64,000 bases of DNA from Candidatus Saccharimonadota bacterium (GCA_046350735.1 JAXLZU010000001.1:12530-76529), one strand, 5' to 3'. Numbered from the stretch's first letter, positions 14,336 through 41,772 are shown. Made by a program: numbers and translations. Notes: a model not told the origin generated them from the letters alone.

Positions 14336-14338
14336 TTT

Positions 14339-14364: not shown

Positions 14365-14429
14365 ATATCTTATAAACACTTTTTTATATCTGTAGAGTAG
14401 AAAAAATAGGGCTTTTTTGATAAAAAGTA

Positions 14430-15705: not shown

Positions 15706-15779
15706 TACAAAAATATTGTCATTCTGAGGCACACAGTTCTTACTTTGTTCAAACAATATTGTTCGAGGTAATCCGAGAA

Positions 15780-17105
15780 CTACTGCAAGCTCTTTTGTAT
15801 CTCTAGGGTTACCGCTGCAGCGGCTAGGTTGGTGGCTATCTTAGAATCGTACCCTGCTAAATAATTACTAACCATCTCGCGCAGATTGTTATTGGTGGCA
15901 TAGTTAATTCCCCTGTACCAATCACTAGCAGTGGCTATCTGGCGGGCAAATGGGGCCAAGTCTTTATCGTTATACTGTTGAGCAACAAGATCTCTCCTTG
16001 CTGCTGGCCATAGACTAGCCTGAGAGTAAAGTAGTTGTTGGTTTTTACTAGTAGCAAAGCCTAAGAAGTCCCAAGCAATCTCGCTATTCTTACTCGTCTT
16101 GCTTACTCCTTGTGTAAATATTACCCCATAATTAAGTGGTGTTTTAGGGTTGGTTTGTGGTAGAGCAACCATAGTAAAGGGTAGGTTGGTATTCTGTTTG
16201 CGTAGGGTCTTAGCTACCATTGGATAATCTATCATCATTTGTGTCTTTCCAGTTGCAAAGGCAGTTACGCTCGAGCCCAGCGCATCGCTCCAGGTATAGT
16301 TCTCTTTGCTGGGCTGAGCAAAGCTAGCATAATATTCTAATGCCTTGCTGCCAGATGAGTAGCCAGTACTATCTGCAAGCTGAAAAGTAGCTTTGGTAGG
16401 GGGTGAGTTTGTCATAACAGCACCATTTTGCATCATAAACATACTAATAATATCAGGGTAGCTATGAACAGCGGCAGTACCGAGAGCAGCTCCAGAACTA
16501 TATAGCGTCTGGCCTTGCTTATTACGAACACTACTATTGGCTTTATCAAACTCTTGCCAGGTACTTGGTGGTGAGCTAATATTGGCTTTTTTAAATGCAT
16601 CGGTATTATAAAACAAACCAAGTGTAGCAATACCAAACGGCATGCCATAGATGTTCTTGCCACTTACTAGGCTTTTACTAGCAAAATCGGCAAAGGTTTG
16701 ATTAAATTGCTCGGCAGTTATCACACTCTCAGGCGCAGGCTGGAGTGATTTTTGATAGAGCGGTAAGCCATCGTTACGAAATCCAAACATATCAGGCAAT
16801 GAACCAGCAGCCTGGGCCTGCAAAACTTTTGCCTGATAATTAGCCGGGTCTATATAGGTAATATTTACCGTAACATTAGGATGTAGCTTCTTATAGTTGG
16901 CCAATACTGCATCTAAATTACTGGCTTCATCACTTGGCAACCAGTAGCTAAGAGTAATTGGCGAGGTGGGGTAGACCACTTTTGACTGATACTCGATACT
17001 TGGTGAAGTAAAGAGTCCGCTACTCTGTGTAAGAACATAGATAAGTGTGGCGATAATTAATCCACATAGAATAAGTGCAGTCAGCTTGAGGTAGCGATGT
17101 TTCAT
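15780..17105 (-). CDS. ABC transporter extracellular solute-binding protein (family 1, sugar-type); orphan (no permease/ATPase adjacent)
   Basis: Start trimmed to MKHRYLKLTALILCGLIIATL (signal/anchor; minus ATG at 17105). ~440 aa with SBP_bac_1-like composition. Confidence 0.55.
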   Translation of the reverse strand: MKHRYLKLTALILCGLIIATLIYVLTQSSGLFTSPSIEYQSKVVYPTSPITLSYWLPSDEASNLDAVLANYKKLHPNVTVNITYIDPANYQAKVLQAQAAGSLPDMFGFRNDGLPLYQKSLQPAPESVITAEQFNQTFADFASKSLVSGKNIYGMPFGIATLGLFYNTDAFKKANISSPPSTWQEFDKANSSVRNKQGQTLYSSGAALGTAAVHSYPDIISMFMMQNGAVMTNSPPTKATFQLADSTGYSSGSKALEYYASFAQPSKENYTWSDALGSSVTAFATGKTQMMIDYPMVAKTLRKQNTNLPFTMVALPQTNPKTPLNYGVIFTQGVSKTSKNSEIAWDFLGFATSKNQQLLYSQASLWPAARRDLVAQQYNDKDLAPFARQIATASDWYRGINYATNNNLREMVSNYLAGYDSKIATNLAAAAVTLEIQKSLQ

Positions 17106-22423: not shown

Positions 22424-22938
22424 TTATGATTCTTGCCCTTATACTGGTCAGTATGCTGTTTGTAGCGATTTGTGTTATTGCCTGGGATAAAATTGTTGTT
22501 GGCAAAGTGCCATTTATTTCTCTACCAAACGAAATTATCGAGCAGGTGCTTGCTAATGTCTTTATTCAGCCCAACAAAACGGTATACGACCTTGGCTGTG
22601 GCGATGGTAGAGTGTTGCTTGCTGCCGCCAAAAAGCAGCCTAAGGCCACTTACATTGGTATAGAACGGGCATTTTGGCCCTACTTGCTTGCCAAATACAA
22701 AACCCGCACGGTAGAGCAGATTTCTATTTATCGCGGCGATATTACCAAGCTAACCTTACAGCAGTCGGCTTTGGTGGTGTGCTATTTACTGCCAGAGCTA
22801 TTGGCAAAGATTCAATTTAACGGCCAAGATGTAGTAAGCATCGAGTACCAAATACCGGGCCGCAAACCAAATAAAACAATTGTATTAAAAAAACATTCCC
22901 GACTTGTCTCGAAAATGTTTTTTTATAACGCTAATTAA
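22420..22938 (+). CDS. small class I SAM-dependent methyltransferase
   Basis: Motif I VYDLGCGDGRVLLAAAKK. N-terminal TM segment. ATGA overlap with upstream gene. Confidence 0.5.
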   Translation: MIMILALILVSMLFVAICVIAWDKIVVGKVPFISLPNEIIEQVLANVFIQPNKTVYDLGCGDGRVLLAAAKKQPKATYIGIERAFWPYLLAKYKTRTVEQISIYRGDITKLTLQQSALVVCYLLPELLAKIQFNGQDVVSIEYQIPGRKPNKTIVLKKHSRLVSKMFFYNAN

Positions 22939-23318
22939 ACCTTAAAGATACCAAGTACAAAGTTAACAATAACAAAAGAGAGTATCGCTACAATCAAACC
23001 AATCACCGAGTAGAGAATAGTATCTTTGGCGGCTCGTACGGCATTTTCGTCACCATTAGACAAAGTATAGCGAAAACCACCAATAATTATCATAATTACC
23101 GATACAATGCCAATTGCTACCAAGAGGAAGTTAACAATAATCGACACGTAGCCACCAGAGCCCGTAACACTACCCTTGGCCAATCCATTTGCGCTACCTG
23201 CAGCATTTACGCCTGCCTGCAAGCCACCAGATACATCGTCAGCAAATGCAGTTGGGACTGCCAAGAAGGTAGCACCAAGTACAGTAGCAGTAGTAATTGT
23301 TTTGAGTGTGTTTTTCAT
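22935..23318 (-). CDS. VirB2/TrbC-like putative T4SS pilin, paralog 1
   Basis: Start trimmed to MKNTLKTITTATVLGATFLAVPTAFA (signal peptide; minus ATG 23318). Two hydrophobic helices flank loop GGFRYTLSNGDENAVRAAKDT. Core shared with three neighbours. Confidence 0.5.
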   Translation of the reverse strand: MKNTLKTITTATVLGATFLAVPTAFADDVSGGLQAGVNAAGSANGLAKGSVTGSGGYVSIIVNFLLVAIGIVSVIMIIIGGFRYTLSNGDENAVRAAKDTILYSVIGLIVAILSFVIVNFVLGIFKV

Positions 23319-23337
23319 TTTAGAAAAGAATTCTATA

Positions 23338-23706
23338 TTAAACACCAAATCTGGCAAGAACAAAGTTGACGATAGCAAAGCTAAGCAACGCAACCACAAT
23401 ACCAATTACGGCATAAAGAATAGTATCTTTAGCGCCAGAAACGGATTTTTCGTTACCGTTAGAAAGTACATAACGAAAACCACCAACAATAAGCATAATT
23501 ACAGCAACAATACCAATAACAATAAGCATTACGTTAATGATGTTCTTAACATTTTCTTGCAGGCTACCGCTAGCAGCGTTAGAAGGTTGTACTGCATCTA
23601 CTGCACCGCTAATGCTTTCGTCAGCACGAGCAGCTACCGGCAATAGAGCTACTGCAGTACCACCACTTACAATTGCGAGTTTCTTTAGTTTGTCTTGGCT
23701 TAACAT
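23338..23706 (-). CDS. VirB2/TrbC-like putative T4SS pilin, paralog 2
   Basis: Signal peptide MLSQDKLKKLAIVSGGTAVALLPVAARA, then IINVMLIVIGIVAVIMLIVGGFRYVLSNGNEKSVSGAKDTILYAVIGIVVALLSFAIVNFVL. Confidence 0.5.
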   Translation of the reverse strand: MLSQDKLKKLAIVSGGTAVALLPVAARADESISGAVDAVQPSNAASGSLQENVKNIINVMLIVIGIVAVIMLIVGGFRYVLSNGNEKSVSGAKDTILYAVIGIVVALLSFAIVNFVLARFGV

Positions 23707-23828
23707 TTTTTTGTCTTTCTCCTTTGGTTGAATAACGTTATTTTATTACCTTGTATTATGGCTTATATTCTACCAGAAAACAAGCAAAAAGAAAAAAGAC
23801 TAAGCTTACTTAATATAATTAGTATCTT

Positions 23829-24119
23829 TTACTTAAATACCGAGATAACAAAGTTAACTATTACAAAGGCAAGAATAGTAACTATTAAGCCAATTACTGC
23901 ATTAGTAATGGTACTCTTGGCAGTCCGGGTCTTATCTTCGCTACCACCCGAGGTAGAATATTGAATCCCTCCAACAATAATGAAGATTACAGCCACTGCA
24001 CCGGCAACGAAGAGTAGAATATTAGTTACTCTACTTATTAACACAGTAAAATCTGACGGCCCAGGCACGCCATTTGGTACATTAAAAGTGTCTGATAATA
24101 GGAATTTTATATAGTTCAT
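23829..24119 (-). CDS. VirB2/TrbC-like putative T4SS pilin, paralog 3
   Basis: ILLFVAGAVAVIFIIVGGIQYSTSGGSEDKTRTAKSTITNAVIGLIVTILAFVIVNFVI has the same two-helix core. Confidence 0.5.
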   Translation of the reverse strand: MNYIKFLLSDTFNVPNGVPGPSDFTVLISRVTNILLFVAGAVAVIFIIVGGIQYSTSGGSEDKTRTAKSTITNAVIGLIVTILAFVIVNFVISVFK

Positions 24120-24161
24120 ATTGTCTAAAGTATAGTTTTTTTACCACCTAAAAAGCAACCC

Positions 24162-24797
24162 TTACTTAACAAATGCATTTAAGACACTAATGACTATACC
24201 TACCGACAACGACATTATTAACCCAATAATTGCATAGGTTATTGTAGTTTTAGCTTTAGTTACCTTGTTAGAATCACCAGCTGAAGTTGTATACTGTATT
24301 CCACCAATAATAATAAAAATGACTGCTAGGGCACCGACTGCAAAGAGCAGAACACTTATAACATTATTACTTAAATCAGTAACTCCCTTGAGTTTAGTTG
24401 TATCAACATTTGCAAATATTCTAGTATTTAATAAATTGAAAATTGCGTTAAAAGAGATTAGAAATCCTAGGCTAACTGCTGCTTGCACCAGTCTGTCCTT
24501 GGCCGATTTTATTCTATCTGGACTACCACCTGACGTTACGTATTGTATAGCTGATACAAGTATTACTATTGTTAATACAATACCAACTATGCCAATTAAA
24601 TAGAGAACGATATTACCTATTACAACGCTTAATGCATTGTCACCCGAAATACTACCTTGGTTTGCGCAAAAAATCTGCTTTCCTGCATCACTTAATTTCG
24701 AGCAATCGAGGTCTGCAGCAAAAGCCGGTACATTAATAAACACAATAGCTAAAACCGCAGTAAGTATTGATAATAAAAGCATTTTTGTTCGGCCCAT
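24162..24797 (-). CDS. tandem-duplicated (two-module) VirB2-like pilin paralog 4
   Basis: Two successive copies of the core: ...IVLYLIGIVGIVLTIVILVSAIQYVTSGGSPDRIKSAKDRLVQAAVSLGFLISF... and ...LLFAVGALAVIFIIIGGIQYTTSAGDSNKVTKAKTTITYAIIGLIMSLSVGIVISVL... N-terminal signal/TM. Confidence 0.5.
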   Translation of the reverse strand: MGRTKMLLLSILTAVLAIVFINVPAFAADLDCSKLSDAGKQIFCANQGSISGDNALSVVIGNIVLYLIGIVGIVLTIVILVSAIQYVTSGGSPDRIKSAKDRLVQAAVSLGFLISFNAIFNLLNTRIFANVDTTKLKGVTDLSNNVISVLLFAVGALAVIFIIIGGIQYTTSAGDSNKVTKAKTTITYAIIGLIMSLSVGIVISVLNAFVK

Positions 24798-27155: not shown

Positions 27156-27162
27156 AAACCCT

Positions 27163-27196
27163 ATCGTTATTTGATAGGGTTTTATCTTTATCCATT
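27163..27196 (+). terminator. intrinsic terminator after first VirB6-like gene
   Basis: aaaaaccctatc-gttatttg-atagggtttt followed by atcttt. Confidence 0.55.
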
Positions 27197-30247: not shown

Positions 30248-31111
30248 ATGACAGAAAATCAACCACCCCAATTAACCCCTGGTCAGCGTGAATACGTTAA
30301 TTCAGTAACGCCGCCCAAAAAATCCAAAAACAAGCAATTAAGCACCCAAGCTCATTTGCAATTTTCGGAAATAAAAGATGGGGTAGTAATTATGCGCGAT
30401 GGTAGCTTGCGTATGGTAATTCTATGTAGTCCAACCAACTTCGACCTCAAAAGTCCTGCCGAAAAAGATGCTGTTGAGTTTGCTTTTCAGGGCTTCTTAA
30501 ATGGCCTTCATTTTCCTATTCAAATTGTTATACAATCTCGCCGTATCGACCTCGATGGGTATTTAGAAAAACTCGAGAAAATCCAGAGTGATCAGCCTAA
30601 CCCACTTCTTTCTAGCCTTATGGAAGACTATATCTACAATATTCGTGGTCTTTTAGAAGAAGTGAATATTATGGAGAAAAGATTTTATGTGGTGGTACCA
30701 TACTATGTGGCCGGGGTTAGTAAAGAAAATATTCTTACCAAATTAAAAGGCGTGTTCTCAAATGAAGAAGCAACCCAAACAGTTGGTGAATACGAAAAAC
30801 GTAAAAACGAGCTTGTACAGAGAACGAATCAAGTAGCTCAGGGCTTGGCCCAGGTGGGAGTACGCTCGGTTATTCTTAACACCCAAGAAATAATTGAGTT
30901 ATTCTATAACTCCTATAATATTGATGAGTCACAAAATCAATCGCTGGCTGATGTTTCGCAAATTAATGCACCTGCTGTTACCCGCAAGGGTGGTCCAGCC
31001 ACGCTGCATCCACCTACCCCACAAGAAGCCATGCCAGATGATCTATTTTCGGCGGCGCAAAAACAAGCTATGCAAAATCAGAATCCACAAAATCAAGGAG
31101 TACCACAATAA
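30248..31111 (+). CDS. T4SS protein resembling a VirB4 N-terminal-type domain (possible split VirB4 partner), translationally coupled to VirB4
   Basis: KDGVVIMRDGSLRMVILCSPTNFDLKSPAEKDAVEFAFQGFLNGL..IQIVIQSRRIDLDGYLE resembles VirB4/TrbE N-terminal blocks. Stop TAA overlaps the VirB4 ATG (TAATG at 31109-31113). Confidence 0.35.
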   Translation: MTENQPPQLTPGQREYVNSVTPPKKSKNKQLSTQAHLQFSEIKDGVVIMRDGSLRMVILCSPTNFDLKSPAEKDAVEFAFQGFLNGLHFPIQIVIQSRRIDLDGYLEKLEKIQSDQPNPLLSSLMEDYIYNIRGLLEEVNIMEKRFYVVVPYYVAGVSKENILTKLKGVFSNEEATQTVGEYEKRKNELVQRTNQVAQGLAQVGVRSVILNTQEIIELFYNSYNIDESQNQSLADVSQINAPAVTRKGGPATLHPPTPQEAMPDDLFSAAQKQAMQNQNPQNQGVPQ

Positions 31112-32985
31112 TGGCATTCAAAAAAACGGCCCAACCCAAACTTACTCCTGCCCAGCAAGCCCAAATGGCTCGTCAAGAACAGGCTGAGCAAATTTATCGC
31201 CAAGGTGTCGTTACCTTGCGCGACGTTATTGCACCAAGCTCAATAGAGGTAGAAGCTAACTTTATAAAAATTGGTACTCGTTACGCACGTACACTCTTTG
31301 TATATGCATATCCACGAAGTCTGTTTACTGGTTGGCTTAGCCCTGTAATAAATATTGATGAAGTGGTAGATATTAGTCTAAATATCGAACCTGTCGAGAG
31401 TAGGGTGGTACTAGAAAACCTCAAAAAGAAAGTTGGCCAACTAGAAGCTAACTATTCGATTAATGCAGAGAAAGGAAAAGTACGCGACCCAGGACTAGAG
31501 GCAGCAATTTCAGATGCCGAAGAGTTACGAGACAAATTGCAAGTGGGCGAAGATAGATTCTTCCGTCTGGGTGTTTATCTAACTGTCTATGGCAAAAGTT
31601 TGGACGACCTAGACCAGGTGGTAAAAAAAATTGAATCTATTCTAGGTCAAGAACTTATTTATACCAAACCAAGCACTATTCAAATGGAACAAGGTTTTAA
31701 TTCAACCTTACCTATTGGCCTCGATCAACTTAGTATTAATCGCAATATGGATACTGGTGCAATTGGTACAAGCTTTCCGTTTACCACTGCTAATTTAAGT
31801 AACGAAGAGGGAATATTGTATGGCATTAATCGCCACAACAATGGTTTGGTACTGTTTGATCGTTTTAGTCTAGAAAATGCCAATATGGTAGTATTTGCCA
31901 AATCTGGTGCAGGTAAATCATTTGCTGTTAAGCTTGAGGCGTTAAGAAGCTTAATGTTTGGCACAGAAATTATTATTGTCGATCCAGAAAATGAATATAA
32001 GAGCCTTTGTGAGGCAGTGGGTGGCAGCTTCTTACAACTTAGCCTTACTAGTAATACACATGTTAATCCATTTGAACTTCCCCGAACAGTTGACCCAGAA
32101 GAAGCCGATAATGCCTTGCGGGCAAACATTATTATGCTACATGGTCTTTTACGTCTAATGATGGGTGATATGAGTGCAGCCGAAGAATCAGATTTAGATG
32201 TTGCTCTTATTGCCACGTATGCGCAAAAAGGTATTACTAACGACCCGCTCACCCATACTGCCGAGCCACCAGTAATGGCTGATTTGTACAACACTCTCAA
32301 TACTACCGGAGGAAATGGACCAGCTCTCGCCGCCCGCTTGCGTCGCTATACAGAAGGAACGTTTTCTGGCATATTCTCACAGCAAAGTAATGTAGATCTG
32401 AATAATCCATTTGTAGTCTTTAATATTCGTGATCTCGAAGACGAATTGCGACCAATTGGTATGTATATTGTTCTTAATTATATTTGGAACAAAGTAAAAT
32501 CCGAGAAGAAGAAACGTATCTTGATTGTTGATGAAGCCTGGCAACTCATGCAATACCAAGACTCAGCAATGTTTATGTTTTCTATTGCTAAGCGCTGCCG
32601 CAAATACTACCTTGGTCTAACAACAATCAGCCAAGATGTAGAAGACTTCTTAAGTACACGTCTGGGCCGGGCAATTGTAAACAACTCTTCTCTGCAGCTT
32701 TTACTCAAGCAAAACCCCGCCGCAGTCGACATTGTTGCCGATACTTTTAAACTAACTTCTGAAGAGAAGAAGCGCTTAAGCCAATTCCCAGTTGGAGAAG
32801 GACTATTCTTTGCTGGGCTAAGCCATATTATAATGAGAATTATTGCCAGTCCTACCGAAGAACAACTTATTACTACCAATCCTAAGGATTTACTTGAGGC
32901 AGGTAAAATAACACAAGCTGAAGCTGGTCAAATTGCCGAACAATCGACCAATGATCGCAGTATCGAAGTAGATAGCGCAGCATAG
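31111..32985 (+). CDS. VirB4/TraE-type T4SS ATPase (Gram-positive style)
   Basis: Walker A FAKSGAGKSFAVK, Walker B ILIVDEAWQL. N-terminal YARTLFVYAYPRSLFTGWLSPV block typical of Gram-positive VirB4 homologs. 624 aa. Confidence 0.8.
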   Translation: MAFKKTAQPKLTPAQQAQMARQEQAEQIYRQGVVTLRDVIAPSSIEVEANFIKIGTRYARTLFVYAYPRSLFTGWLSPVINIDEVVDISLNIEPVESRVVLENLKKKVGQLEANYSINAEKGKVRDPGLEAAISDAEELRDKLQVGEDRFFRLGVYLTVYGKSLDDLDQVVKKIESILGQELIYTKPSTIQMEQGFNSTLPIGLDQLSINRNMDTGAIGTSFPFTTANLSNEEGILYGINRHNNGLVLFDRFSLENANMVVFAKSGAGKSFAVKLEALRSLMFGTEIIIVDPENEYKSLCEAVGGSFLQLSLTSNTHVNPFELPRTVDPEEADNALRANIIMLHGLLRLMMGDMSAAEESDLDVALIATYAQKGITNDPLTHTAEPPVMADLYNTLNTTGGNGPALAARLRRYTEGTFSGIFSQQSNVDLNNPFVVFNIRDLEDELRPIGMYIVLNYIWNKVKSEKKKRILIVDEAWQLMQYQDSAMFMFSIAKRCRKYYLGLTTISQDVEDFLSTRLGRAIVNNSSLQLLLKQNPAAVDIVADTFKLTSEEKKRLSQFPVGEGLFFAGLSHIIMRIIASPTEEQLITTNPKDLLEAGKITQAEAGQIAEQSTNDRSIEVDSAA

Positions 32986-33051: not shown

Positions 33052-36000
33052 ATGGCAGATAGTTTTGGACCAGATAATTTACCAGATGAAGAGGTAAGTA
33101 AAAAGGTATCTTCGGATTCCGGATTTAGTGCACCAGGTGATTTTGGCGACTTACCCGTATCACCAGTTGGTAATAAATCGGGTAGTAGTCAAAAAAATCG
33201 TATGGGTTATAATGCCGATTCACTCCCTGGAAATGATAAGGTGCCCGGTGGATACAGTAATCTTGCTAATGCTGCCAGTGGCGAAGGAAGTGCGAGTGAT
33301 AAAGCCCAAGAAGCTGGCAGGCAGGCTCTAAAGTCTGCAGCAACTGGAGGTGAGGGTGGCTTACCAGGTGGTGCCGGAAAAGTTCCAGGCTTGGGTGGTA
33401 GTGGCCCAGTTACAAAAGGTGACAAAGAAGCTGAAGCAAAAAAAGGCAATACTGAAAAGAACGTTGATGCCGCAGCAGTGGCAGCAGCTAGCTATTTTGG
33501 TACGCCCGCAGCAGGTGCGGCTGTTGAAAAACTTGGTGGTGTTCGGGGAATCACCAAGAAAGTTGGTGTTATTTCTCTCATACTTCTTGTTCCTTTTGTT
33601 CTGTTAGGTTTTCTAGTTGCATATATTATTAGTAATCCCTGGGAAGCCCTCCAGCATGTTCTTCTCGACAAAAAAACTCGTGAGTTTACCTTACAAGTAG
33701 CTGATAATTGGTCTCAAAATAACGGGTTAGTAAATGGTGCAGTAAAAGTTTCTCAAAAATTAAATGAATTTACATATACTCCAGATGGTAATCACGTAAT
33801 TGCTGCCAATCAAGTGACTAAGCCAGAGCCAGGATCTATAGAGGAAAAGTTTGAGAAAATAGATTGGGCTAAATCACAGTATCAAACATTGCCAAGAAAC
33901 GACTGCCGTTATGATTTTGAGCTACAGCAAGTAATAGGTAGTGATGGAAAGCCCCGTAGTATACCAAAATCTGTACTCGATAAACAAACTGGTAAAACAA
34001 CACCTGTAGATCAGCTTAACAGTAACACTGAGGCTGGATACTGTATTGCGCAGAAATACCCTATATACAATCTTATGTGGCGTCAGCCTATGGCGAGAGA
34101 TATAAATAAAAAAGCTAACCTATATCTTAGCTATGCAGCAAATAAAGATTCAAAAGATGTAAATGGTAGTAATTCTGAAGTCGAAAAATATGTTTATGAC
34201 AAAACTCTCAAGAGAATAACTCCTGTTCCAAAAGATTCGCTAGATTTTGGACCATTCGTTGAGGATATTAATGCGATAGAAAGACAATATGCCTATGAGG
34301 TAAAGATCTGGAATGACGCACATCCAAATGACCTAATACCTTTTGATGAGAGTAAACGTGATATTCCAAAAGGTATGCAAAGAATGTATGACGATATGAA
34401 GAACGGCAAAAGTCCCTATGATATTAATATTGCCGACTATATAAATGTCCCTACTAAAGACACCGCCAATGGTTCTGCCGTAGTTCCGACTGGTATAGCA
34501 ATTAGTATATGTCCATATGTTTTTGCATTTATGGATACAGGAAATAGTGATCCAAATAGAGCCACTGCTGCTGCACATAATGCCCGCCTTGCTATTGAAA
34601 GTCGGTTAAATGGGGCGGAAAGAAGTAGTGCAAAAACACTTACCCTTACAGATACTCGTAAGGCAAATGCACTCAACACTAATGAGAGCAATGTAACAAT
34701 TCAACAAAACGATAATTGGGCCTCTTCAACCGCTTATCAATTGGATGTATATAACCAGCTAAGAGGAAACCAAATGAACCCAGAGGGCACTCATAATCGT
34801 GCATATAACGTACCATTAAATTTAGATAGTGGTCCTATGAATGTTATAAAAAGAGCATGTCCATTGATTGCGGCAGCAGGTAAAGAAACGGGTTCTGGTA
34901 ATTTCTTAGGAAGTATTTTCTCGACACTTACAGGTCTTTTTGGTTCTCTTACGCAGGAAACCGGACAAGACGGTAATCAAATTATGATAAATGGCTATAC
35001 TGATCTAAAAACACAAATCTTAAATAATTCACAAGGTGTATTTAGTAGTACAAGCAGTTTTGGTTTGGAACAAATTATGACTTCATATGTAAGAACTGGT
35101 TCTTCAACCTCGGTGAGCGGTCTCGAGCCTGGCCCTAATAATTATAATCGTCAAAGTATGGGTTTACGTCAATTAATGAACGATTACACACTCGGAATTG
35201 GCGGAAGATTTTTAACCCCTTACGAATCAAGAGATTTAGCGCTGAGAGCAGATAATATCGACAGCAAACTACAAAAAAATAATGGTATTGCTTATAGACT
35301 ATTCAATACAGCTAATATCCATTCATTGGCAAGTATTATTATACAAAATACAACTACGCCCAATACTGCAAAAACCGCAATGATAGGAGGTTTTAAATCA
35401 ATTCTAGATCCGTTATGGTCTCTAGCAGATATTCATAGTGGTGTCTTATTCTACGCAACCGGAGAAAAAAACAATGCCTTAGCAGCAGATATTACAGGAG
35501 ATCAGTATTTTAAGATTGAAACAGCCGGCTTTACACCACAAGAGCTTGCATTAGATCCAATCGATAACGCTCACATTATTGAAGCGGTTAAAAAAAGTAA
35601 TGACGAAAATCAAAAACGGAAATTTTCTCACTATGATCAATGCTTTAAAGCAAAAATTCCAACAGCGTTATATTTTGAAATTAAAGAAAGAGAAGTTAGG
35701 GATGATAAAGGTACCCTTACTGGCTATAAGAGATATTTCACTTATTATCCAGATAAATCTGTCGATCTTAATCTAGATAAACAACCTATAAATGATTCTC
35801 CAGATTCAGAATTTAATAAATTTAATGACTGTAAATTTCTTCTACAGGAAGCTAAAGACCTAAACAACCCTAATCAGTTACTCGCAATTCGATATCGTCT
35901 CTATAACTATTACAATACCCAATTAGATTATTTAGGTAAGCTTAGTAGCGACCAGAGCGACACAAGTATCTATGCTGGCAGCTCGGGTGGTAGTGGGTCA

Positions 36001-36447
36001 CTAGAAAATAATGGGCAGTCATCTACCAATTTTATTTGGCCTGTAGAAGAGCCTTATGGTATTAGTCGTTGTACTAAAGGACATGGCTTTCCTGCAGTTG
36101 ATATTTATTTTCCAGGCAAAGAAACTGCTAAGATTTATGCAGTCGCCGATGGTGAGGTGGCCGCAATTCGACCAGTAGAAGGGAGTGGTGGATATGGTAA
36201 TTTTGTAATACTTAAGCATAAAGATGGGCTCTACACTGCATATGCCCATAATAAAGAAATACTTGTTAAAAATGTTGGTGACCTAGTTAAGCAAGGAGAT
36301 GTTATTGCTATCGGAGATAATACAGGAAAATCTACAGGGCCACACTTACATTTTGAGGTACGAAAAGACGGTGTAGAGGGAGCAAAACAAAACCCCGCAG
36401 ACTATCTACCAGACAAGGCAAATATTAGGAGTATCTGTAGTCAATGA
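33052..36447 (+). CDS. giant (1131 aa) T4SS-associated membrane-anchored cell-wall hydrolase with C-terminal M23 (LytM) peptidase domain
   Basis: Gly-rich N-terminus, TM helix VISLILLVPFVLLGFLVAYII. C-terminal HGFPAVDIY...GYGNFVILKH...GPHLHFEV gives the M23 HxxxD/HxH metal ligands. Confidence 0.7.
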   Translation: MADSFGPDNLPDEEVSKKVSSDSGFSAPGDFGDLPVSPVGNKSGSSQKNRMGYNADSLPGNDKVPGGYSNLANAASGEGSASDKAQEAGRQALKSAATGGEGGLPGGAGKVPGLGGSGPVTKGDKEAEAKKGNTEKNVDAAAVAAASYFGTPAAGAAVEKLGGVRGITKKVGVISLILLVPFVLLGFLVAYIISNPWEALQHVLLDKKTREFTLQVADNWSQNNGLVNGAVKVSQKLNEFTYTPDGNHVIAANQVTKPEPGSIEEKFEKIDWAKSQYQTLPRNDCRYDFELQQVIGSDGKPRSIPKSVLDKQTGKTTPVDQLNSNTEAGYCIAQKYPIYNLMWRQPMARDINKKANLYLSYAANKDSKDVNGSNSEVEKYVYDKTLKRITPVPKDSLDFGPFVEDINAIERQYAYEVKIWNDAHPNDLIPFDESKRDIPKGMQRMYDDMKNGKSPYDINIADYINVPTKDTANGSAVVPTGIAISICPYVFAFMDTGNSDPNRATAAAHNARLAIESRLNGAERSSAKTLTLTDTRKANALNTNESNVTIQQNDNWASSTAYQLDVYNQLRGNQMNPEGTHNRAYNVPLNLDSGPMNVIKRACPLIAAAGKETGSGNFLGSIFSTLTGLFGSLTQETGQDGNQIMINGYTDLKTQILNNSQGVFSSTSSFGLEQIMTSYVRTGSSTSVSGLEPGPNNYNRQSMGLRQLMNDYTLGIGGRFLTPYESRDLALRADNIDSKLQKNNGIAYRLFNTANIHSLASIIIQNTTTPNTAKTAMIGGFKSILDPLWSLADIHSGVLFYATGEKNNALAADITGDQYFKIETAGFTPQELALDPIDNAHIIEAVKKSNDENQKRKFSHYDQCFKAKIPTALYFEIKEREVRDDKGTLTGYKRYFTYYPDKSVDLNLDKQPINDSPDSEFNKFNDCKFLLQEAKDLNNPNQLLAIRYRLYNYYNTQLDYLGKLSSDQSDTSIYAGSSGGSGSLENNGQSSTNFIWPVEEPYGISRCTKGHGFPAVDIYFPGKETAKIYAVADGEVAAIRPVEGSGGYGNFVILKHKDGLYTAYAHNKEILVKNVGDLVKQGDVIAIGDNTGKSTGPHLHFEVRKDGVEGAKQNPADYLPDKANIRSICSQ

Positions 36448-37433
36448 TGAAGAATCGAACAATACTATTTGTAGTAATCGCCGTTTTAGGGATTTTAGTT
36501 TTTGGTATAACTATTACATTTATACTCTCTTTACAATCATTACCGTTACTAAAACCAGAACTGGTTGCACAGAATGCCGGTATATTATCTGTAGTTAATG
36601 ATGAACCGTTTTTAATTAATAGTAATAAACTCTATAAAATAGAGGCATCTCAACTCACTTTAAAAAAAGAATTCGCAAATGATAGTCAGTTAGAATTAAA
36701 TCCATTTGGTAAATATATTACTGAAAAAAGACCTAACTTAAAAACGGTTTATACAATTGATAATTTTCAATCAATTCAACAAAATACTGGTAGATTCTTT
36801 GCATGGTTAACAAGTGATAGCTACTTAATTACTAATGCCACCAATTCAACCGAGGGAACAGATGCTGGTGAGCTTACAGAAACCGCCTTTGAAGGAACAG
36901 TGTTAAATAGTCAAAAGAAGAATTTATTTACAAGTAATTTTATTATTTACATGCTACTTGCACATGATTCATATATAGATATCGCGCAAATAGATGAAGA
37001 GGATAATTATGATAATCTAATAGTTAATCAGTTTACCTATAAAGATGGGTTACAAAAGATTAGTAATAAAAGAAATTTTGGCTATAAACCCTTTATAAAA
37101 TTTGGATTTAGTTTAATACAAGAAAATACTGCTTCAAGAGATATTTTCTTGTTAAAAGATAAACAATTGAATCAATTAAAGATAAGTAATAGTGTTAACA
37201 TACAGGCTGTATCAGCGATTAATAATTCTACACTTATATATTTTGACAAAGATAGTAAAGAAGATAAGATATTTCTTTATACATACAATATAAACAACCA
37301 GGAATCAAAGAAAATCGCAAAACTACCAGTTGAATTCACACAAATCACAAGTTTAGCAGTTAACTCCCAATATATTTATATTAATTGTAAGCAAGGAATC
37401 TATAAAATTAGCATTAAGGATATAAATGGGTAA
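36444..37433 (+). CDS. N-terminally anchored N/I/K-rich protein (329 aa), unknown function, T4SS island
   Basis: Single N-terminal TM (ILFVVIAVLGILVFGITITFIL). Strongly AT-biased coding. ATGA overlap with upstream gene. Confidence 0.35.
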   Translation: MMKNRTILFVVIAVLGILVFGITITFILSLQSLPLLKPELVAQNAGILSVVNDEPFLINSNKLYKIEASQLTLKKEFANDSQLELNPFGKYITEKRPNLKTVYTIDNFQSIQQNTGRFFAWLTSDSYLITNATNSTEGTDAGELTETAFEGTVLNSQKKNLFTSNFIIYMLLAHDSYIDIAQIDEEDNYDNLIVNQFTYKDGLQKISNKRNFGYKPFIKFGFSLIQENTASRDIFLLKDKQLNQLKISNSVNIQAVSAINNSTLIYFDKDSKEDKIFLYTYNINNQESKKIAKLPVEFTQITSLAVNSQYIYINCKQGIYKISIKDING

Positions 37434-39867
37434 GTTTAAACACATAACTACAATCTTATTAATAGTTTTCTCTACTCTATTACCTTTTCAAGCCTTGGCT
37501 TTTACACCACAGCAAAGATTTGAGATAGAGAGGACACCACAGTTTGACCCAACCGACGTACCATGCGGAACAACTACTATTACTACCTCTGTTAGCTCTA
37601 CACTACCCAATGATTTACCTGAGCCAGTAAGAACAATGATAACTAAAGCCGCCAATAGTCAGCAGACTGATCCACTCGCATTAATGGCACTATTTATGGT
37701 AGAAAATGGTATTCAAGATTACAGGAAGGCAAATATTAAAGGCTCTAACCCTGAAGACTACAACAAAGGCTGGCCAACAAGTAGTGCGGGTGCCCAAGGA
37801 CCATTTCAATTTTTACCTAGTTCTTTTCCAAAAGATGCAGGAGATATTAATAATTTTCAAGACGCTGCCAATGCCGCTGCGAAGGTATTTTTGAAAGATA
37901 TTGCTCAAATACCAGCCAGTGGAGCAAAGGAAGGCGAATTGGCAGCAAAAGAAAAGGGTACTCTTAGCTACTTATTTGGTGCATACAACGGTGGCCCCGG
38001 CTATAGTCCTGGTAGCGTGCAGGGCTACGTTACACTTGCTTTAAAGCATTATAAAGAACTACAAGCAGGGAGCTCGGGAAGTGGTGGTGCAGGTAGTGGC
38101 ACAATCCCGGCCCAGACTACTCACAAAGATAACCCCTTACTTCCTGCGGCACATGCTGAAGAAACTCAACCAACCACAGTAGATAATAAACCAGCTCCTG
38201 GTAAAGTCTTTGTAATTGGTGACTCAATAACATTTCAATCTAAAGCAAACATACTTGCTAAGTTTGCGGCTGTCGGTTATACCGATGTAGAAGTGGATGG
38301 TTTAAGTAGTAGAGGATTAACTGGGGGAGGACCAAGCCCAACTGGTTTAGAAGTTATAAATTCGAGTACAGAAAAAATTAAAGCTTCTAAGGCGGTAGTT
38401 ATTGCACTAGGGACAAATGCCTATAATGTAACTACATTTGGTAACGATATAAAAACTGCAATTGGTGCTGTGAAGGCTGCCAACCCAGAGGCTAAAATCT
38501 ACTGGGTTGATGTGGCAGGTAGATTTCAAGACAAGCCATCTTTGGCTAGTATATATCAAAATATTAATAAGGCAATTTATGATAATAAAGCTGAGGGATA
38601 TTCAGTTATTTCTTGGTTTAAAACTGTATATCCGCAAGGCGATCCGACAGACATTAAGCCTGGTTTAGTAGATACTAATAATCTAATAACTAACTCAGAT
38701 GGATTAGCTGTTCATCCAACTAGTCCTGCAGGCCAAGATGCCTTTGGTGCGGTTATTGCAGAAAATGTTTCTAATGGTGGCGGGAGTGCAGTCGGTGTAC
38801 AAAAATCTAATGATTGTAATAAAAATGGTGCTCAGGGAGTTGGAACTTGTGTGGATGATGGCCGATTATTTACCATTAATGTAAGTGATGAAGAACTTGG
38901 CAAAGTTATAGATGACTATGCTAAATCTAAAGGCTTGGGCGATGCACCACTTGCTAACTTAGGTGCAAAGTTTGTATCTGGAGCAAAGCGAGCTGGTGTT
39001 AACCCATTCTTACTTGTACAAATTGCTATACAAGAATCAAGTTACGGTAAAGCTATACCAGATAATAGTTACAACTCTTTTGGCAGAACAGCCACCGCAT
39101 CACAACCTAACGTTACAGCAAATGGCCGCCTCTGGTATAAATATGATTCATTTTCTGACAGCTTAGATGGAGGTGGAATTAAAGATGATCAACCAACTTA
39201 TGTAAAAAAAGTGTATTTAGATGAAGGTAAAATTACTATTAGTGATATTATTATGAAATATGCACCACCTGGTGATGGCGGTAATAATCCAGAACAATAC
39301 ATTGCAGGTATAAAGAAAACTATTCAAGAACTTGTAACAGCTTCTGGGGATAAGATATCTTGTGGAGAATCCACTTCATCAGCTAGTGCTGATCAAGATA
39401 CATCAAATATTCCATGTCCAACAATTCCTGGTATTAGTGAGGTTGGTATAGAACAAGATAAGGGCCCCGGGGGTGTGGATACCGTTAAGATTATGGTTTG
39501 TAATGTAGACGGAATACAAGTAAATACTACAATAGCCTCTAAATTAAAGGAATTACTCAATGCTGCAAAAGCAGATGGAGTAATATTTGGTGGTGGTGGC
39601 TTTAGATCATTCCAGCGTCAAGTTGAATTACGTACTATTAATGGGTGCCCAGATGTCTACACTGCACCAGCTAGTTCTTGCAGAGTGCCTACTGCAATAC
39701 CAGGAACATCAATGCATGAAGTAGGTTTAGCGATCGATTTTACTCAGAATGGTAGCACACTAAGTAAAGGGTCGTCGGGTTATAATTGGTTAAAGACGAA
39801 TGCAGATAAATATGGCTTTAAAAATTTACCAAGCGAACCTTGGCATTGGTCGATAAATGGGAAATAA
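37426..39867 (+). CDS. secreted tri-domain peptidoglycan hydrolase: lytic transglycosylase (SLT-like) + SGNH/GDSL esterase + VanY/M15-type D,D-carboxypeptidase-like domain
   Basis: Signal peptide. SLT-like ALMALFMVENG...GAQGPFQFLPSSF. SGNH block KVFVIGDSITFQS...ALGTNA. C-terminal GGGGFRSFQRQVEL...PGTSMHEVGLAIDF (LAS/M15 zinc peptidase His/Asp ligands). Confidence 0.6.
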   Translation: MGKFKHITTILLIVFSTLLPFQALAFTPQQRFEIERTPQFDPTDVPCGTTTITTSVSSTLPNDLPEPVRTMITKAANSQQTDPLALMALFMVENGIQDYRKANIKGSNPEDYNKGWPTSSAGAQGPFQFLPSSFPKDAGDINNFQDAANAAAKVFLKDIAQIPASGAKEGELAAKEKGTLSYLFGAYNGGPGYSPGSVQGYVTLALKHYKELQAGSSGSGGAGSGTIPAQTTHKDNPLLPAAHAEETQPTTVDNKPAPGKVFVIGDSITFQSKANILAKFAAVGYTDVEVDGLSSRGLTGGGPSPTGLEVINSSTEKIKASKAVVIALGTNAYNVTTFGNDIKTAIGAVKAANPEAKIYWVDVAGRFQDKPSLASIYQNINKAIYDNKAEGYSVISWFKTVYPQGDPTDIKPGLVDTNNLITNSDGLAVHPTSPAGQDAFGAVIAENVSNGGGSAVGVQKSNDCNKNGAQGVGTCVDDGRLFTINVSDEELGKVIDDYAKSKGLGDAPLANLGAKFVSGAKRAGVNPFLLVQIAIQESSYGKAIPDNSYNSFGRTATASQPNVTANGRLWYKYDSFSDSLDGGGIKDDQPTYVKKVYLDEGKITISDIIMKYAPPGDGGNNPEQYIAGIKKTIQELVTASGDKISCGESTSSASADQDTSNIPCPTIPGISEVGIEQDKGPGGVDTVKIMVCNVDGIQVNTTIASKLKELLNAAKADGVIFGGGGFRSFQRQVELRTINGCPDVYTAPASSCRVPTAIPGTSMHEVGLAIDFTQNGSTLSKGSSGYNWLKTNADKYGFKNLPSEPWHWSINGK

Positions 39868-40891
39868 TATGATTACTAAAAAAAATATCTTTCTCCTTAT
39901 TTTAATCATTATCATTACGGTAATCACTATAATAATCGTTATCTTTGTTGTAGGGTCAAATAATACAAAGGTCACGCTTATTTCAAAGGATAAATTAGAC
40001 CAATCGCAACAAATAATTGCAAGTGATAATGCGGTTTTTTATATTTCTGAAGATGGATATTTAAAGAAAATTACCAATTCTACTGTGTCTACTATTAGTT
40101 CTATTAATACAAATTTTTCTCCGAAAATTAGCTATAGTGGTGAAAATATTAGCTATATAAATCCTACTACTCGAGAGCTTACTGTTTATAGAACAGATCA
40201 GCAGGGAACAGAAAATACCCCTTTATTAAAAATTGATAGAGTGGCTTTTACACAATGGCAGGACAATAATAACCTTATACTAGTACAACTTAAACCAGGT
40301 GATTCTAATTTTGGTGAGTATTTTAACACAGAAGATGTCCGCCCAAATATACAAGGGTCATTAGTGCGTGTAAATGTATTAACAAAAAATACAGAATTGC
40401 TTGGGGGGATTAATCTTCAAGAACTTTTATTGTCTAATACTAATTACGTTTTATTTACTACAAAAGAAACCGACACACTACTTCAAATTAATAAGTTTGA
40501 TATAACTTCAAAACGAGTGACAGAGGTTACTAAGCAAGCAATTACACAAGTAAAAATTATTAATAATAACAATGTTTTAATAAAATCACCTGTAGATAAT
40601 TTTCCAAAATTAATACAAGGGGCATCAGTTCAGAATATTGATATTTCAACAAATACCAACCTAATTACTGGGTTAAACAACCAATCAATTCAGTCGCTTT
40701 TCTTTATTTCTAGAGAGGGAGATGATAATCTCTTTAATAAATATAATTTATCAAAATCAACACAGAATGTATTACAAAGGATCGATCCAGTTATTACTAA
40801 TCCAATAAATACCGTTATTTTACCTAAGCAACTCATTATTTTTTCTCAAGATGGGGTATATGTAATTAACAACAATAAGGTAACAGAATGA
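39857..40891 (+). CDS. N-terminally anchored N/I/T-rich protein (344 aa), unknown function
   Basis: TM ILLILIIIITVITIIIVIFVV. Repetitive beta-rich composition. Confidence 0.35.
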   Translation: MGNNMITKKNIFLLILIIIITVITIIIVIFVVGSNNTKVTLISKDKLDQSQQIIASDNAVFYISEDGYLKKITNSTVSTISSINTNFSPKISYSGENISYINPTTRELTVYRTDQQGTENTPLLKIDRVAFTQWQDNNNLILVQLKPGDSNFGEYFNTEDVRPNIQGSLVRVNVLTKNTELLGGINLQELLLSNTNYVLFTTKETDTLLQINKFDITSKRVTEVTKQAITQVKIINNNNVLIKSPVDNFPKLIQGASVQNIDISTNTNLITGLNNQSIQSLFFISREGDDNLFNKYNLSKSTQNVLQRIDPVITNPINTVILPKQLIIFSQDGVYVINNNKVTE

Positions 40892-41505
40892 AAAAGATTA
40901 TCATTATTATTCTTCTAGTTATAATTGTAGCCTTTATTACAGGATTTATTTATTTCACAGTTAATAACAATCGGGATCAGAGTTTTTCATTAATAAAAAC
41001 TAAACCTAATAATTATAGTAAAGAGGTAAATGTTAATTCAGAGATAACCTTTGAGTTTTCTGAACCACTTTCTAAAAACGAATCAAAAAATACAGTCGAA
41101 GTAATACCAAATTCATTTCTTATAAAAACTATTAACGATAAGGTATTAACCTTAAAACCAAATATTACTCTAAAAGAAAACACACAGTACACTATAAAGA
41201 TTTCTAATATTGAGTCAATTAATAATGAGAAACTTAGCCCAATAACATTAATATTTACAACCGGAACGGATAACTCAGATCGAACTAGATTTATTAAATC
41301 GCTTCCAATACAGGCTGAGGGTTTTTATATTGAGTATGATGATTTAACTAATATATTCATTGTTACAATACAAAAAAATCCATATGATAAATATAAACAG
41401 AATGCGATAGATTACTTAAACTCAAAAGGTATAAATACCAATACAGAACAAATCCAATATAAAGAACTCCGTTTTCTTCAAGGTAATGGTGCTCCTCCTG
41501 GTTAG
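40888..41505 (+). CDS. N-terminally anchored protein (205 aa), unknown function
   Basis: TM IIIIILLVIIVAFITGFIYF. ATGA overlap with upstream gene. Confidence 0.35.
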   Translation: MKKIIIIILLVIIVAFITGFIYFTVNNNRDQSFSLIKTKPNNYSKEVNVNSEITFEFSEPLSKNESKNTVEVIPNSFLIKTINDKVLTLKPNITLKENTQYTIKISNIESINNEKLSPITLIFTTGTDNSDRTRFIKSLPIQAEGFYIEYDDLTNIFIVTIQKNPYDKYKQNAIDYLNSKGINTNTEQIQYKELRFLQGNGAPPG

Positions 41506-41508
41506 TAA

Positions 41509-41772
41509 TTAACTAATTACAATGCTTATTTGAGATATATTATATTTTTCTAGCTGCTTTAGTAAGGAGTATTGTATTAACCTTAATTCGCTTGCTGCAG
41601 AAGCATTAGGAGTAGAAATAATTAAGATTGGTGGCTGAAATTTCTTAATAGTAACTTGTATTTGAGTAGCTTGTAAGATTGTATTTTGAATTTCTAATAT
41701 CGTTTTTTGCGTATCTGTATAATACGTATGTTTACCAAATTGATGTTTCTTAATTCGCTCTAAATCGCTCAT
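41509..41772 (-). CDS. DUF721 family protein (DciA-like, candidate replicative helicase operator)
   Basis: Located immediately downstream of recF in the dnaA-dnaN-recF block. PILIISTPNASAASELRLIQYSLLKQL matches the DUF721 core pattern. Confidence 0.45.
   Translation of the reverse strand: MSDLERIKKHQFGKHTYYTDTQKTILEIQNTILQATQIQVTIKKFQPPILIISTPNASAASELRLIQYSLLKQLEKYNISQISIVIS

Follow-up and report, generated by a model that had tools for sequence, protein, structure and literature searches.

Two predicted peptidoglycan hydrolases with replaceable catalytic modules in the oriC-adjacent type IV secretion cluster of a Saccharibacteria chromosome

The analysed window, a stretch of 64,000 nucleotides from Candidatus Saccharimonadota bacterium (GCA_046350735.1 JAXLZU010000001.1:12530-76529), contains two long ORFs, proteins A and B, whose lengths and positions (Table 1) agree with the first-pass annotation. 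They lie in a conserved chromosomal cluster for a Gram-positive-type (MPF-FATA-like) type IV secretion system (T4SS) adjoining oriC, with the gene order pilins, VirB6 x2, PrgI, u287, VirB4, A, B, recF-dnaN-dnaA. The pilin array, the two VirB6-like paralogs, PrgI and the CD1110-type VirB4 bear out the T4SS setting proposed earlier, but not the "island" that came with it: the cluster is chromosomal, sits at recF-dnaN-dnaA and keeps its order across related loci, and a mobile-island setting was rejected. Orthologs of A and B remain linked to the T4SS genes, the order being kept in every related Saccharibacteria locus with sufficient flanks; the same order is found in L004-L008, L010, L011, L013 and L014. 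VirB4 directly precedes A, and from A to the Big_5 gene, which is syntenic in all long loci, neighbouring ORFs of the operon overlap by 4-11 nt.

Table 1. Features at the A/B locus; positions are counted from the first nucleotide of the window.
Feature	Position	Strand	Basis
Four VirB2-like T4SS pilin genes, array	22935..24797	-	Pfam T4SS_pilin and ORFs
Pair of polytopic VirB6-like membrane paralogs, 759 and 655 aa	24876..29314	+	BLASTP E 4e-51; weak TrbL match
VirB4 ATPase, CD1110 family, immediately 5' of A	31111..32985	+	NCBIfam E 3.6e-113
Protein A, 1131 aa	33052..36447	+	ORF; position corresponds to SEML1_0007
A low-complexity G/A/S/K-rich tail, aa 1-170	33052..33561	+	composition, model
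A single predicted transmembrane helix, aa ~171-197	33562..33642	+	Kyte-Doolittle peak 2.91 at aa 171-189
A core, aa ~200-975, mostly helical, ending in LSSDxSDxSIYA	33649..35976	+	alignment, cluster search
A C-terminal predicted M23 metallopeptidase (Hx5D, YAH, HLH)	36058..36426	+	Pfam, PDB alignments, motifs, Foldseek
u329, N-terminally anchored, 329 aa, between A and B	36444..37433	+	ORF
Protein B, 813 aa, predicted Sec-exported four-module wall hydrolase	37426..39867	+	ORF, domains, model
B predicted signal peptide, aa 1-25 (...FQALA|F)	37426..37500	+	hydrophobic aa 7-25, then AxA
B mature N-terminal peptide FTPQQRFEIERTPQFDPTDVPCG, aa 26-48	37501..37569	+	sequence comparison
B module 1, putative SLT-type lysozyme-like (E93, GPFQF125, AYNGG186)	37603..38073	+	Pfam, profile, motifs, model
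B module 2, SGNH esterase/acyltransferase fold (GDS S267, GTN N331, H430)	38188..38775	+	fold, motifs
B module 3, putative GH73-like glycosidase (E537, NSFG, YKYDS, KYAP), aa ~475-645	38848..39360	+	Pfam, profile, motifs
B module 4, predicted M15B VanY-type metallopeptidase (SMHEVGLAID, EPWH)	39508..39864	+	Pfam, PDB alignment
u344, N-terminally anchored, 344 aa	39857..40891	+	ORF
Anchored Big_5 (bacterial Ig-like) protein, final operon gene	40888..41505	+	Pfam E 5e-11

As judged from its sequence, protein A is a membrane-anchored core amounting to about 90% of its length plus a replaceable C-terminal peptidase, an architecture that is new from this analysis. The tail (G 18%, A 15%, S 11%, K 9%; pLDDT <30 in the model) is predicted to lie on the cytoplasmic side and contains motifs conserved among orthologs. 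The core of ~780 aa is lineage-restricted, being found in just 41 representative clusters out of 1.84 billion, and has >150 invariant columns in an alignment of 17 sequences. Residues 1-1000 gave zero matches in Pfam, NCBIfam and PHROG, and Foldseek returned no PDB fold match for the core with a low-confidence model (pLDDT 53); the core may serve as a scaffold. A likeness of A to the cyanophage pre-ejectosome was dropped, a Foldseek TM of ~0.1 on a low-confidence model not being evidence.

The M23 assignment of the first-pass annotation holds. Peptidase_M23 (PF01551) matches aa 1020-1108 (E 6.3e-25, 87.7 bits vs a gathering cutoff of 28.7), Foldseek recovers the fold, and the HxH (GPHLHFEV) and the catalytic His (YTAYAHN) align with solved M23 enzymes, in a module that makes up only ~10% of A. 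The zinc-ligand site in the subclade of the window protein reads GH-GF-PAVD (Hx5D), as opposed to the canonical HxxxD; the canonical form, GHPGID, occurs in more distant A orthologs, and the Hx5D spacing looks like a 2-residue insertion kept in P0016-P0021. M23 modules at the B position likewise show Hx5D or Hx6D.

Protein B appears to be built from a signal peptide, then a conserved peptide at the mature N-terminus, then variable modules, a layout that is also new from this analysis. The peptide FTPQQRFEIERTPQFDPTDVPCG is common to all T4SS-linked B-position proteins, whatever modules come after it, and is restricted to the B gene within the window and within the compared loci. Four modules are predicted in B; the earlier "tri-domain" description had overlooked the GH73-like one, and with A the pair would carry five wall-directed modules. 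The VanY module, again as annotated before, is above its Pfam cutoff (PF02557, aa 697-809, E 1.4e-13, 51.2 bits vs 25). Its SMHEVGLAID aligns to SEHQLGLAVD of solved VanY structures, and EPWH is placed by motif position alone, the PDB alignment stopping at aa 800.

The other three modules of B each fall under Pfam's curated cutoffs. The SGNH module proposed earlier (aa 255-450; 25.9 bits vs 32.9, E 1.6e-5) is confirmed by modelled fold and motifs: the model has a pLDDT of about 85-90 and matches GDSL esterases and PatB with a Foldseek probability of 1.00 (TMt 0.58-0.70). SGNH blocks I, III and V can all be located, with S267 invariant and GTN and VHPT conserved; the block V Asp (DxxH motif) is displaced in B (SDGLAVH). 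The related proteins P0005, P0011 and P0014 exceed the Pfam cutoff. The SLT identity of module 1, also claimed earlier, is weaker (aa 60-216; Pfam E 0.003; SLT 17.6 bits vs 21.3, SLT_2 16.9 vs 24.3), and a profile search of PDB found Slt35/MltB at E 0.07. E93 is conserved in all nine module-bearing sequences, GPFQF is present and AYNGG occurs in 5 of 7 close orthologs, while P0009, a homolog of B, matches SLT_2 at 2.7e-14. The GH73-like assignment is suggested by Glucosaminidase (PF01832; 21.3 bits vs a gathering cutoff of 30.2), which matches, at E 7e-5 to 5e-4, window B and all but one of the six full-length orthologs, and by profile matches in PDB to 8yxk, LytB, Atl and AtlE (E 0.002-0.085), a phage wall hydrolase among them; E537, NSFG, YKYDS and KYAP are invariant across 6-7 orthologs. 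The domains proposed earlier for A and B were confirmed, SLT more weakly, and orthologs keep the catalytic motifs, with two non-canonical spacings; neither of the two outcomes named in the first-pass annotation as speaking against it was seen.

The gene pair is already known from a cultured relative, Ca. Southlakia epibionticum ML1, in which Wang et al. (2023, PMC10633639) annotated SEML1_0007 and SEML1_0006 as homologues of a peptidase and a lysozyme. Both genes, downstream of virB4, are described in two papers as essential for epibiotic growth by Tn-seq (PMC10633639; PMC12102498), an observation of the literature and not of this analysis. The proteins were matched by position and description: they share position and orientation between virB4 and recF-dnaN-dnaA, similar length and a C-terminal peptidase. 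SEML1_0007 (1113 aa) resembles A in that only a C-terminal peptidase fold is recognised, and SEML1_0006 resembles B as a multi-module lysozyme plus peptidase. The modules themselves differ. The place of M23 in window A is taken in ML1 A by a DD-peptidase (M15-like) fold, and ML1 B (643 aa) has GH73-like, Phage_lysozyme2 and Cys proteinase modules and no SGNH (annotated as lysozyme-like x2 and Cys proteinase), as against SLT, SGNH, GH73-like and VanY in window B. Unlike ML1, the window has the additional u329 between A and B.

Essentiality is what would be expected of many growth genes, and A and B could be housekeeping autolysins for growth, budding or cell separation of the epibiont, tied to the T4SS merely by their oriC position. 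M23, M15, GH73 and SLT are all families common among autolysins, and the oriC-near site may simply favour high expression (PMC12102498). Tn-seq essentiality by itself shows no action through the T4SS. Nevertheless, we regard the autolysin explanation as highly improbable, given the translational coupling in the T4SS operon, the VirB4-adjacent position strictly conserved across divergent lineages, and the restriction of the A core to the T4SS context; switching of bond specificity between close relatives would also be unexpected of housekeeping enzymes. With somewhat better than even probability, A and B are the peptidoglycan-hydrolase subunits of the conserved chromosomal Gram-positive-type T4SS in Saccharibacteria and stand in functionally for VirB1. 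Encoded beside VirB4 in a T4SS operon, they are predicted to be exported or anchored and to join glycosidase with peptidase modules. A Patescibacteria T4SS paper names the S. epibionticum counterparts as likely VirB1 substitutes (PMC12102498).

The first-pass annotation judged this enzyme set to go well beyond the one VirB1-like transglycosylase that a T4SS normally requires, which is the wrong baseline, since two- and three-domain hydrolases are normal in Gram-positive T4SSs. Two-domain VirB1 homologues occur in monoderm systems, e.g., TraG of pIP501 (PMC12102498). PrgK of Enterococcus faecalis pCF10 comprises LytM, SLT and CHAP domains, only one of them active and under the control of the remaining two; its "SLT" domain turned out to be a muramidase, and PrgK binds the VirB8-like PrgL (PMC11323569). 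With this precedent, domain counts do not equal catalytic activities, and the "four catalytic activities" derived earlier from such a count cannot be upheld; by analogy, some A/B modules may be regulatory. The likeness to PrgK lies in an N-terminally membrane-anchored multidomain hydrolase of a Gram-positive T4SS operon with LytM/M23, SLT and peptidase domains. However, PrgK is a single protein, whereas in the window the function would be divided over A and B; the unique core of A is absent from PrgK, and the window pair adds SGNH and GH73-like modules. The M23 module of A appears to retain its metal ligands, whereas PrgK LytM is degenerate. The window system has pilins, and most Patescibacteria T4SS clusters are described in the literature as lacking a relaxase.

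Comparison of lineages indicates that enzyme modules are swapped on the conserved carriers A and B, a further result new from this analysis. The C-terminal cassette of A is M23, VanY, M74-like or none, with VanY commoner than M23, and the Phage_lysozyme2 module was found in other lineages. Two discrete replacement tracts are visible. B and its L005 ortholog are 90% identical over aa 1-640, after which VanY gives way to Amidase_2; similarity breaks at about 39390, just 5' of the VanY module, and the tract runs from the B cassette into u344. The L016 tract covers the A cassette and the entire u329 and ends at the B start codon. A conserved carrier with a variable C-terminus, exchanged together with a neighbouring gene, is reminiscent of polymorphic effector-immunity systems, in which the C-terminal modules would be toxins against competitors or hosts and u329 and u344 their cognate immunity proteins, exchanged jointly. 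This is highly improbable. Co-variation of the downstream gene with the C-terminal class is absent, only the two local tracts including a neighbour gene; u329 and u344 contain no known domain and resemble no known immunity family in Pfam, and in several lineages B follows A with no intervening gene. Both are fast-evolving everywhere, u344 very fast, and u344 identity within a cassette class (24% for two Amidase_2 loci, 26% for two M15C-like loci) is not above that between classes (20-29%).

The gene set, its domains and their motifs, the synteny, the replacement of modules and the signals of topology are observed; the enzymatic activities, substrates, docking and target wall set out next are inferred, taking A and B as VirB1 equivalents. 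A would be held by one transmembrane helix, with the disordered tail of ~170 aa inside and the core outside, presenting the replaceable C-terminal peptidase, here M23. B would be exported by Sec and could dock to the machine through its 23-residue N-terminal peptide. Its SLT-type and GH73-type modules would cleave glycan strands, accompanied by the M15B peptidase, and its SGNH module would remove, or possibly add, glycan O-acetyl groups. Acting jointly, A and B would open glycan strands as well as peptide stems at a confined site and let the T4SS channel with its VirB2-type pilus through the peptidoglycan. The wall cut would be the epibiont's own, by analogy with other Gram-positive T4SSs, and possibly the host wall too at the contact site.

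Frequent replacement by modules of different bond specificity is not obviously explained by self-wall assembly alone. It is conceivable, though we lean against it, that A and B target the host, maybe with the T4SS or pilus positioning them, and digest the actinobacterial wall at the contact site so that a pilus or tube reaches the host membrane; module replacement, seen in both tracts, would then track host wall chemistry and shape host range. The nearest relatives of the modules are phage virion- and tail-associated lysins, which act from outside. Tail lysins and tape-measure or ejection lysin modules resemble A in that an M23 or M15 module sits at the C-terminus of a long carrier that is mostly helical. 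The best PDB sequence match of A M23 is Gp16 (9m7n), whose M23 spans aa 813-911 of 915; A M23 and B VanY both have matches among PHROG tape-measure and endolysin families, the best match of B VanY being a tape-measure family, and B VanY groups with proteins whose genes adjoin ORFs of 2870-3174 aa. The phage likeness is limited to the catalytic modules, the A core matching no PHROG family. In cryo-ET a tube ~9 nm wide enters host cells, but it was not identified as T4SS-derived. No cell-wall-binding domain was detected in A or B with Pfam, multidomain hydrolases of Gram-positive conjugation act on the donor wall (PMC11323569), and module diversity may also reflect epibiont wall divergence or neutral domain shuffling. 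Module turnover, phage tail lysin affinity and the cryo-ET tube are compatible with host-wall as well as self-wall action.

The SGNH module might serve a host-directed enzyme by stripping the O-acetyl groups. Such groups block glycan cleavage, and their removal by Ape1-type esterases, which are SGNH-fold peptidoglycan O-acetyl enzymes, permits lytic transglycosylases to act. The fusion of B SGNH to putative glycan-cleaving modules fits de-O-acetylation before cleavage. Ser, Gly, Asn and His are common to B SGNH and the SGNH-fold O-acetyl enzymes, and PatB (7tjb, 8tlb) is among the top Foldseek matches; GDSL esterases and sialate/xylan O-acetylesterases match equally well.

The hydrolases A (1131 aa, C-terminal M23) and B (813 aa, several modules) are encoded in a T4SS cluster which the first-pass annotation had called an island, but which is a conserved, non-mobile part of the chromosome located beside oriC. 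Its pilin genes agree with the arrays reported for Saccharibacteria. The 759-aa protein, formerly an "unknown", is 30% identical over 451 aa to the 655-aa VirB6-like protein (BLASTP E 4e-51), so the cluster encodes two VirB6-like polytopic proteins; the 759-aa one bears a lengthy Pro/Gly/Ala-rich C-terminal tail. PrgI, a 287-aa protein (u287) and a CD1110-type VirB4 (NCBIfam E 3.6e-113) follow upstream of A, while downstream of it u329 (329 aa), B, u344 (344 aa) and a Big_5 protein are encoded with consecutive overlaps of 4-11 nt. Each of u329, u344 and the Big_5 protein has one N-terminal TM anchor, and beyond the Big_5 gene recF, dnaN and dnaA lie on the opposite strand. No strong terminator was found between VirB4 and the Big_5 gene, and the promoter scan was uninformative (62 sites versus 59.5 expected). 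The genome scan yielded 12 loci, all from Saccharibacteria or Patescibacteria MAGs, the nearest being a groundwater MAG at ~90% identity. Wherever the flank suffices, the order of pilins, two VirB6 genes, PrgI, u287, VirB4, A, the gene in the place of B (B-position) and recF-dnaN-dnaA is kept.

Features of the window and of compared loci (L numbers, other genomes or contigs), with the architectures found at the B-position
Feature	Coordinates	Strand	Remarks
Overlapping ORFs	14615-15567	both	three, mutually overlapping
VirB2-type pilin genes	22935-24797	-	array of four; 211-aa member with two pilin repeats
VirB6-like pair, 759 aa and 655 aa	24876-27155 and 27347-29314		paralogs by BLASTP
Terminator-like hairpin	27155-27183		12-bp stem
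A	33052..36447	+	ORF, 1131 aa
B	37426..39867	+	ORF, 813 aa
Conserved B peptide QRFEIERxxxYDPTDC	37501-37569		directly after signal peptide; also in B-position genes of L002-L012
Small ORF	41509-41772	-	87 aa; between T4SS operon and recF
VirB4 and upstream TraC-like gene	L013, 723-3517		inverted relative to A, B and remaining cluster
Stand-alone VanY locus	L017, 1-12867		
Stand-alone VanY locus	L019, 1-12843		
VanY protein gene	L018, 6001-6912		303 aa
B-position architecture 1			SLT-SGNH-GH73 with VanY, Amidase_2 or M15C-like
B-position architecture 2			SGNH-Phage_lysozyme2 with CHAP or M23
B-position architecture 3			Phage_lysozyme2-M23
B-position architecture 4			unassigned module with CHAP

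Some minor features of the cluster were also recorded. The strongest terminator-like hairpin of the region lies right behind the first VirB6-like gene. The small ORF preceding recF is conserved in relatives, and its L014 counterpart gives a weak DciA (PF05258) match. In L013, PrgI adjoins the inverted segment on the other side, a local rearrangement in an otherwise conserved cluster.

Both hydrolase ORFs exist as annotated at first pass, and the claimed M23 domain of A and VanY-like domain of B exceed the Pfam cutoff. In A, Peptidase_M23 (aa 1020-1108, E 6.3e-25, far over the curated cutoff) is the sole Pfam domain, and residues 1 to ~1000 match nothing in Pfam, NCBIfam or PHROGs. A G/A/S/K-rich tail precedes the single strong TM helix (aa 171-189); the core (aa ~200-975) contains more than 150 invariant positions among 17 sequences, and its end is marked by the conserved motif LSSDxSDxSIYA, behind which comes a G/S linker. 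In an exhaustive search this core was present in only 41 representative clusters out of 1.84 billion. The C-terminal module, by comparison, was VanY in 14, M23 in 6 and M74-like in 6 of 35 representatives, being unrecognised or absent in the rest, and the A counterpart of L007 stops right behind the core. Sequence comparison thus presents A as a predicted carrier, of which M23 is a minor, replaceable portion. A fold assignment for the core was dropped, as the AlphaFold model reached a mean pLDDT of only 53; Foldseek with the A model returned M23 matches only, plus a cyanophage pre-ejectosome at TM ~0.1.

Protein B had been described as a tri-domain enzyme, a description that overlooked a fourth, GH73-like module. 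The VanY/M15B domain (aa 697-809, E 1.4e-13) is over the Pfam cutoff, and three further matches are sub-threshold: Lipase_GDSL_2 (aa 263-406, E 1.6e-5), Glucosaminidase (aa 516-594, E 4.5e-4) and SLT (aa 71-192, E 0.003). Fifteen sequences went into the AlphaFold model of B, whose confidence is good over aa 60-216 and 255-450, moderate over 475-645 and poor in the VanY part. The SGNH fold was confirmed by Foldseek against the PDB (probability 1.00), with GDSL esterases, carbohydrate O-acetylesterases and the peptidoglycan O-acetyltransferase PatB as best matches. Since the search of the PDB with the entire B model returned the SGNH module alone, the SLT and GH73 modules were assessed by profiles. 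For the N-terminal module the profile gave a weak match, by way of GAxGxxQFxPS, to lytic transglycosylases of the Slt35/MltB type (E 0.07), and P0009, a homolog of this module, matches SLT_2 (2.7e-14); the earlier SLT call is thus supported more weakly than the SGNH one, both being below the Pfam threshold. With the profile of aa 472-646, E values of 0.002-0.085 were obtained for a phage cell-wall hydrolase and for three GH73 enzymes (LytB, Atl and AtlE), and the Glucosaminidase match recurs in B and 5 of its 6 full-length orthologs. On the strength of the fold, profile and recurring Pfam matches, B is counted as a protein of four predicted modules (SLT-like, SGNH, GH73-like and M15B), and the A and B pair as having five predicted wall-directed modules. 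B also has a predicted cleavable signal peptide. Apart from the GH73-like module and the minor share of M23 in A, the first-pass observation was essentially right.

Neither of the refuting outcomes named at first pass, failed domain matches or catalytic residues mutated in most orthologs, was seen: the catalytic motifs are conserved in the orthologs, with two departures. Across B and the six orthologs of full length, the SLT-like module conserves E93, GPFQF and, for the most part, AYNGG; the SGNH module conserves GDS, whose S267 is invariant, as well as GTN and its block V His; and the GH73-like module conserves E537, NSFG, YKYDS and KYAP. The first departure is the displaced Asp of the SGNH DxxH motif. 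SMHEVGLAID of the B VanY can be aligned to solved VanY enzymes, and EPWH was placed from motif position only. YAH and HLH of the A M23 are likewise alignable to solved M23 enzymes; the second departure concerns the first zinc-ligand motif, which is Hx5D (GH-GF-PAVD) in the window subclade, with GHPGID retained in remoter A orthologs.

B-position proteins range from 379 to 828 aa and vary widely in their modules. Every T4SS-linked one has a signal peptide and, at the N-terminus of the mature protein, the peptide QR[FK]E[IL]E[RK]xxx[YFW][YF]D[PKE]TDC, present whichever catalytic modules come next and absent from the other ORFs of the window and the compared loci. It is put forward as a candidate signal for docking or sorting.

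Pairs of A and B were considered in the window, L004-L008 and L010-L016. Their peptidase classes differ in all 12 loci in which both proteins could be classified, these loci being phylogenetically non-independent: seven loci combine M23 and either M15 or amidase, three have VanY paired with M23, and two have VanY paired with CHAP. Such differences may arise from selection for complementary bond specificities, as far as non-independent loci can indicate. Two discrete replacement tracts are visible in DNA alignments. Identity between the window and L005 is 82-85% until ~39390, 35-45% over the remainder of B and 49-65% over u344, returning to 74-79% by 41142. Between the window and L016 it is 61-75% until 35940, 35-55% over the C-terminal enzyme cassette of A and the whole of u329, and 63-81% again starting at the B start codon; L005, as a control over this tract, stays at 61-85% throughout.

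Direct transfer of VanY between A and B, an idea drawn from the 54-58% identity of the B domain to A-borne cassettes, was rejected because the whole M15B subfamily is equally conserved. The B VanY core is 65-68% identical to phage-like stand-alone proteins; its identity to the best of the A-borne copies reaches up to 65-68%, and that to proteins on high-GC Actinomycetota-like contigs is 55-61%. In an NJ tree of ~119 residues, bearing no support values, B-borne VanY groups with phage-like proteins and A-borne VanY falls in separate clades. The M15B-wide conservation and this short, unsupported tree make it more likely that A and B acquired VanY independently. Among the matches listed, the nearest relatives of the B VanY are stand-alone M15 proteins, in a search that omitted known positives such as P0001 and so cannot show that the nearest relatives lack proteins of type A or B. 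The closest of those listed are encoded on L017 and L019, low-GC contigs (0.37 and 0.48), right after giant ORFs (3174 aa and 2870 aa), one of which has a LAGLIDADG intein domain; next come small genes, a 382-aa gene and a further very large ORF. These surroundings look like a phage tail module. The L018 protein, ~60% identical to the B VanY core, is encoded on a 69% GC contig beside Actinomycetota-like p450, aldo-keto reductase and Rv2525c-like genes; the few named matches listed likewise belong to Actinomycetota, the phylum hosting cultured Saccharibacteria.

The anchored proteins u329 and u344 were considered as cognate immunity proteins. Identity of u344 is no higher within a cassette class than between classes, so that co-variation with the cassette is unsupported and the idea fails for u344. 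The two are not paralogs either (BLASTP E 0.53).

In Ca. Southlakia epibionticum the T4SS comprises SEML1_0006-0019, adjoining dnaA-dnaN-recF, with SEML1_0008 as VirB4 (Wang et al. 2023, PMC10633639). SEML1_0007, the positional counterpart of A (3342 nt), has a C-terminal Hedgehog/DD-peptidase fold as its sole recognised part; SEML1_0006, the positional counterpart of B, has two lysozyme-like domains and a cysteine proteinase, and both were scored essential in co-culture (PMC10633639). Given these data, neither the gene pair nor its importance is a new finding, and multidomain wall hydrolases in this cluster are not new either; what is new is some comparative detail on carriers and modules, which could be useful experimentally. 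The T4SS is essential in the only genetically tractable Saccharibacterium, its role being "completely unknown" (2024 perspective, PMC11665869).

On the best supported reading, A and B serve this Saccharibacterial T4SS as its VirB1-equivalent hydrolases. A would sit in the membrane and hold its peptidase outside the cell, and B would be secreted and dock through its N-terminal peptide, whereupon the glycosidase, esterase and peptidase modules could locally open peptidoglycan for the channel and pilus. [quoted passage not shown] Action on the cell's own wall would follow from this Gram-positive precedent. The first-pass interpretation as a whole is partly supported; action on the host wall would be compatible with the module turnover, the affinity to phage tail lysins and the ~9 nm tube seen by cryo-ET to enter host cells in another Saccharibacterium. 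A further reading is, in our estimation, rather improbable as a whole: the modules would have the host wall as their target and contribute to host range; recombination would have swapped them from a phage tail lysin pool onto the two conserved carriers, in some cases along with the neighbouring anchored gene; and QRFEIERxxxYDPTDC would dock any following enzyme set onto a host-penetrating T4SS or pilus. Within the T4SS machine, it is the hydrolase pair whose biochemistry is most readable, and conserved carriers with modules that turn over, together with one shared B peptide, make the question of self- versus host-wall action testable in S. epibionticum.

Elsewhere in the window, GC content peaks at 0.54 (14000-16000, versus ~0.40 window-wide); no Rfam family matched this peak, and the three overlapping ORFs lie inside it.
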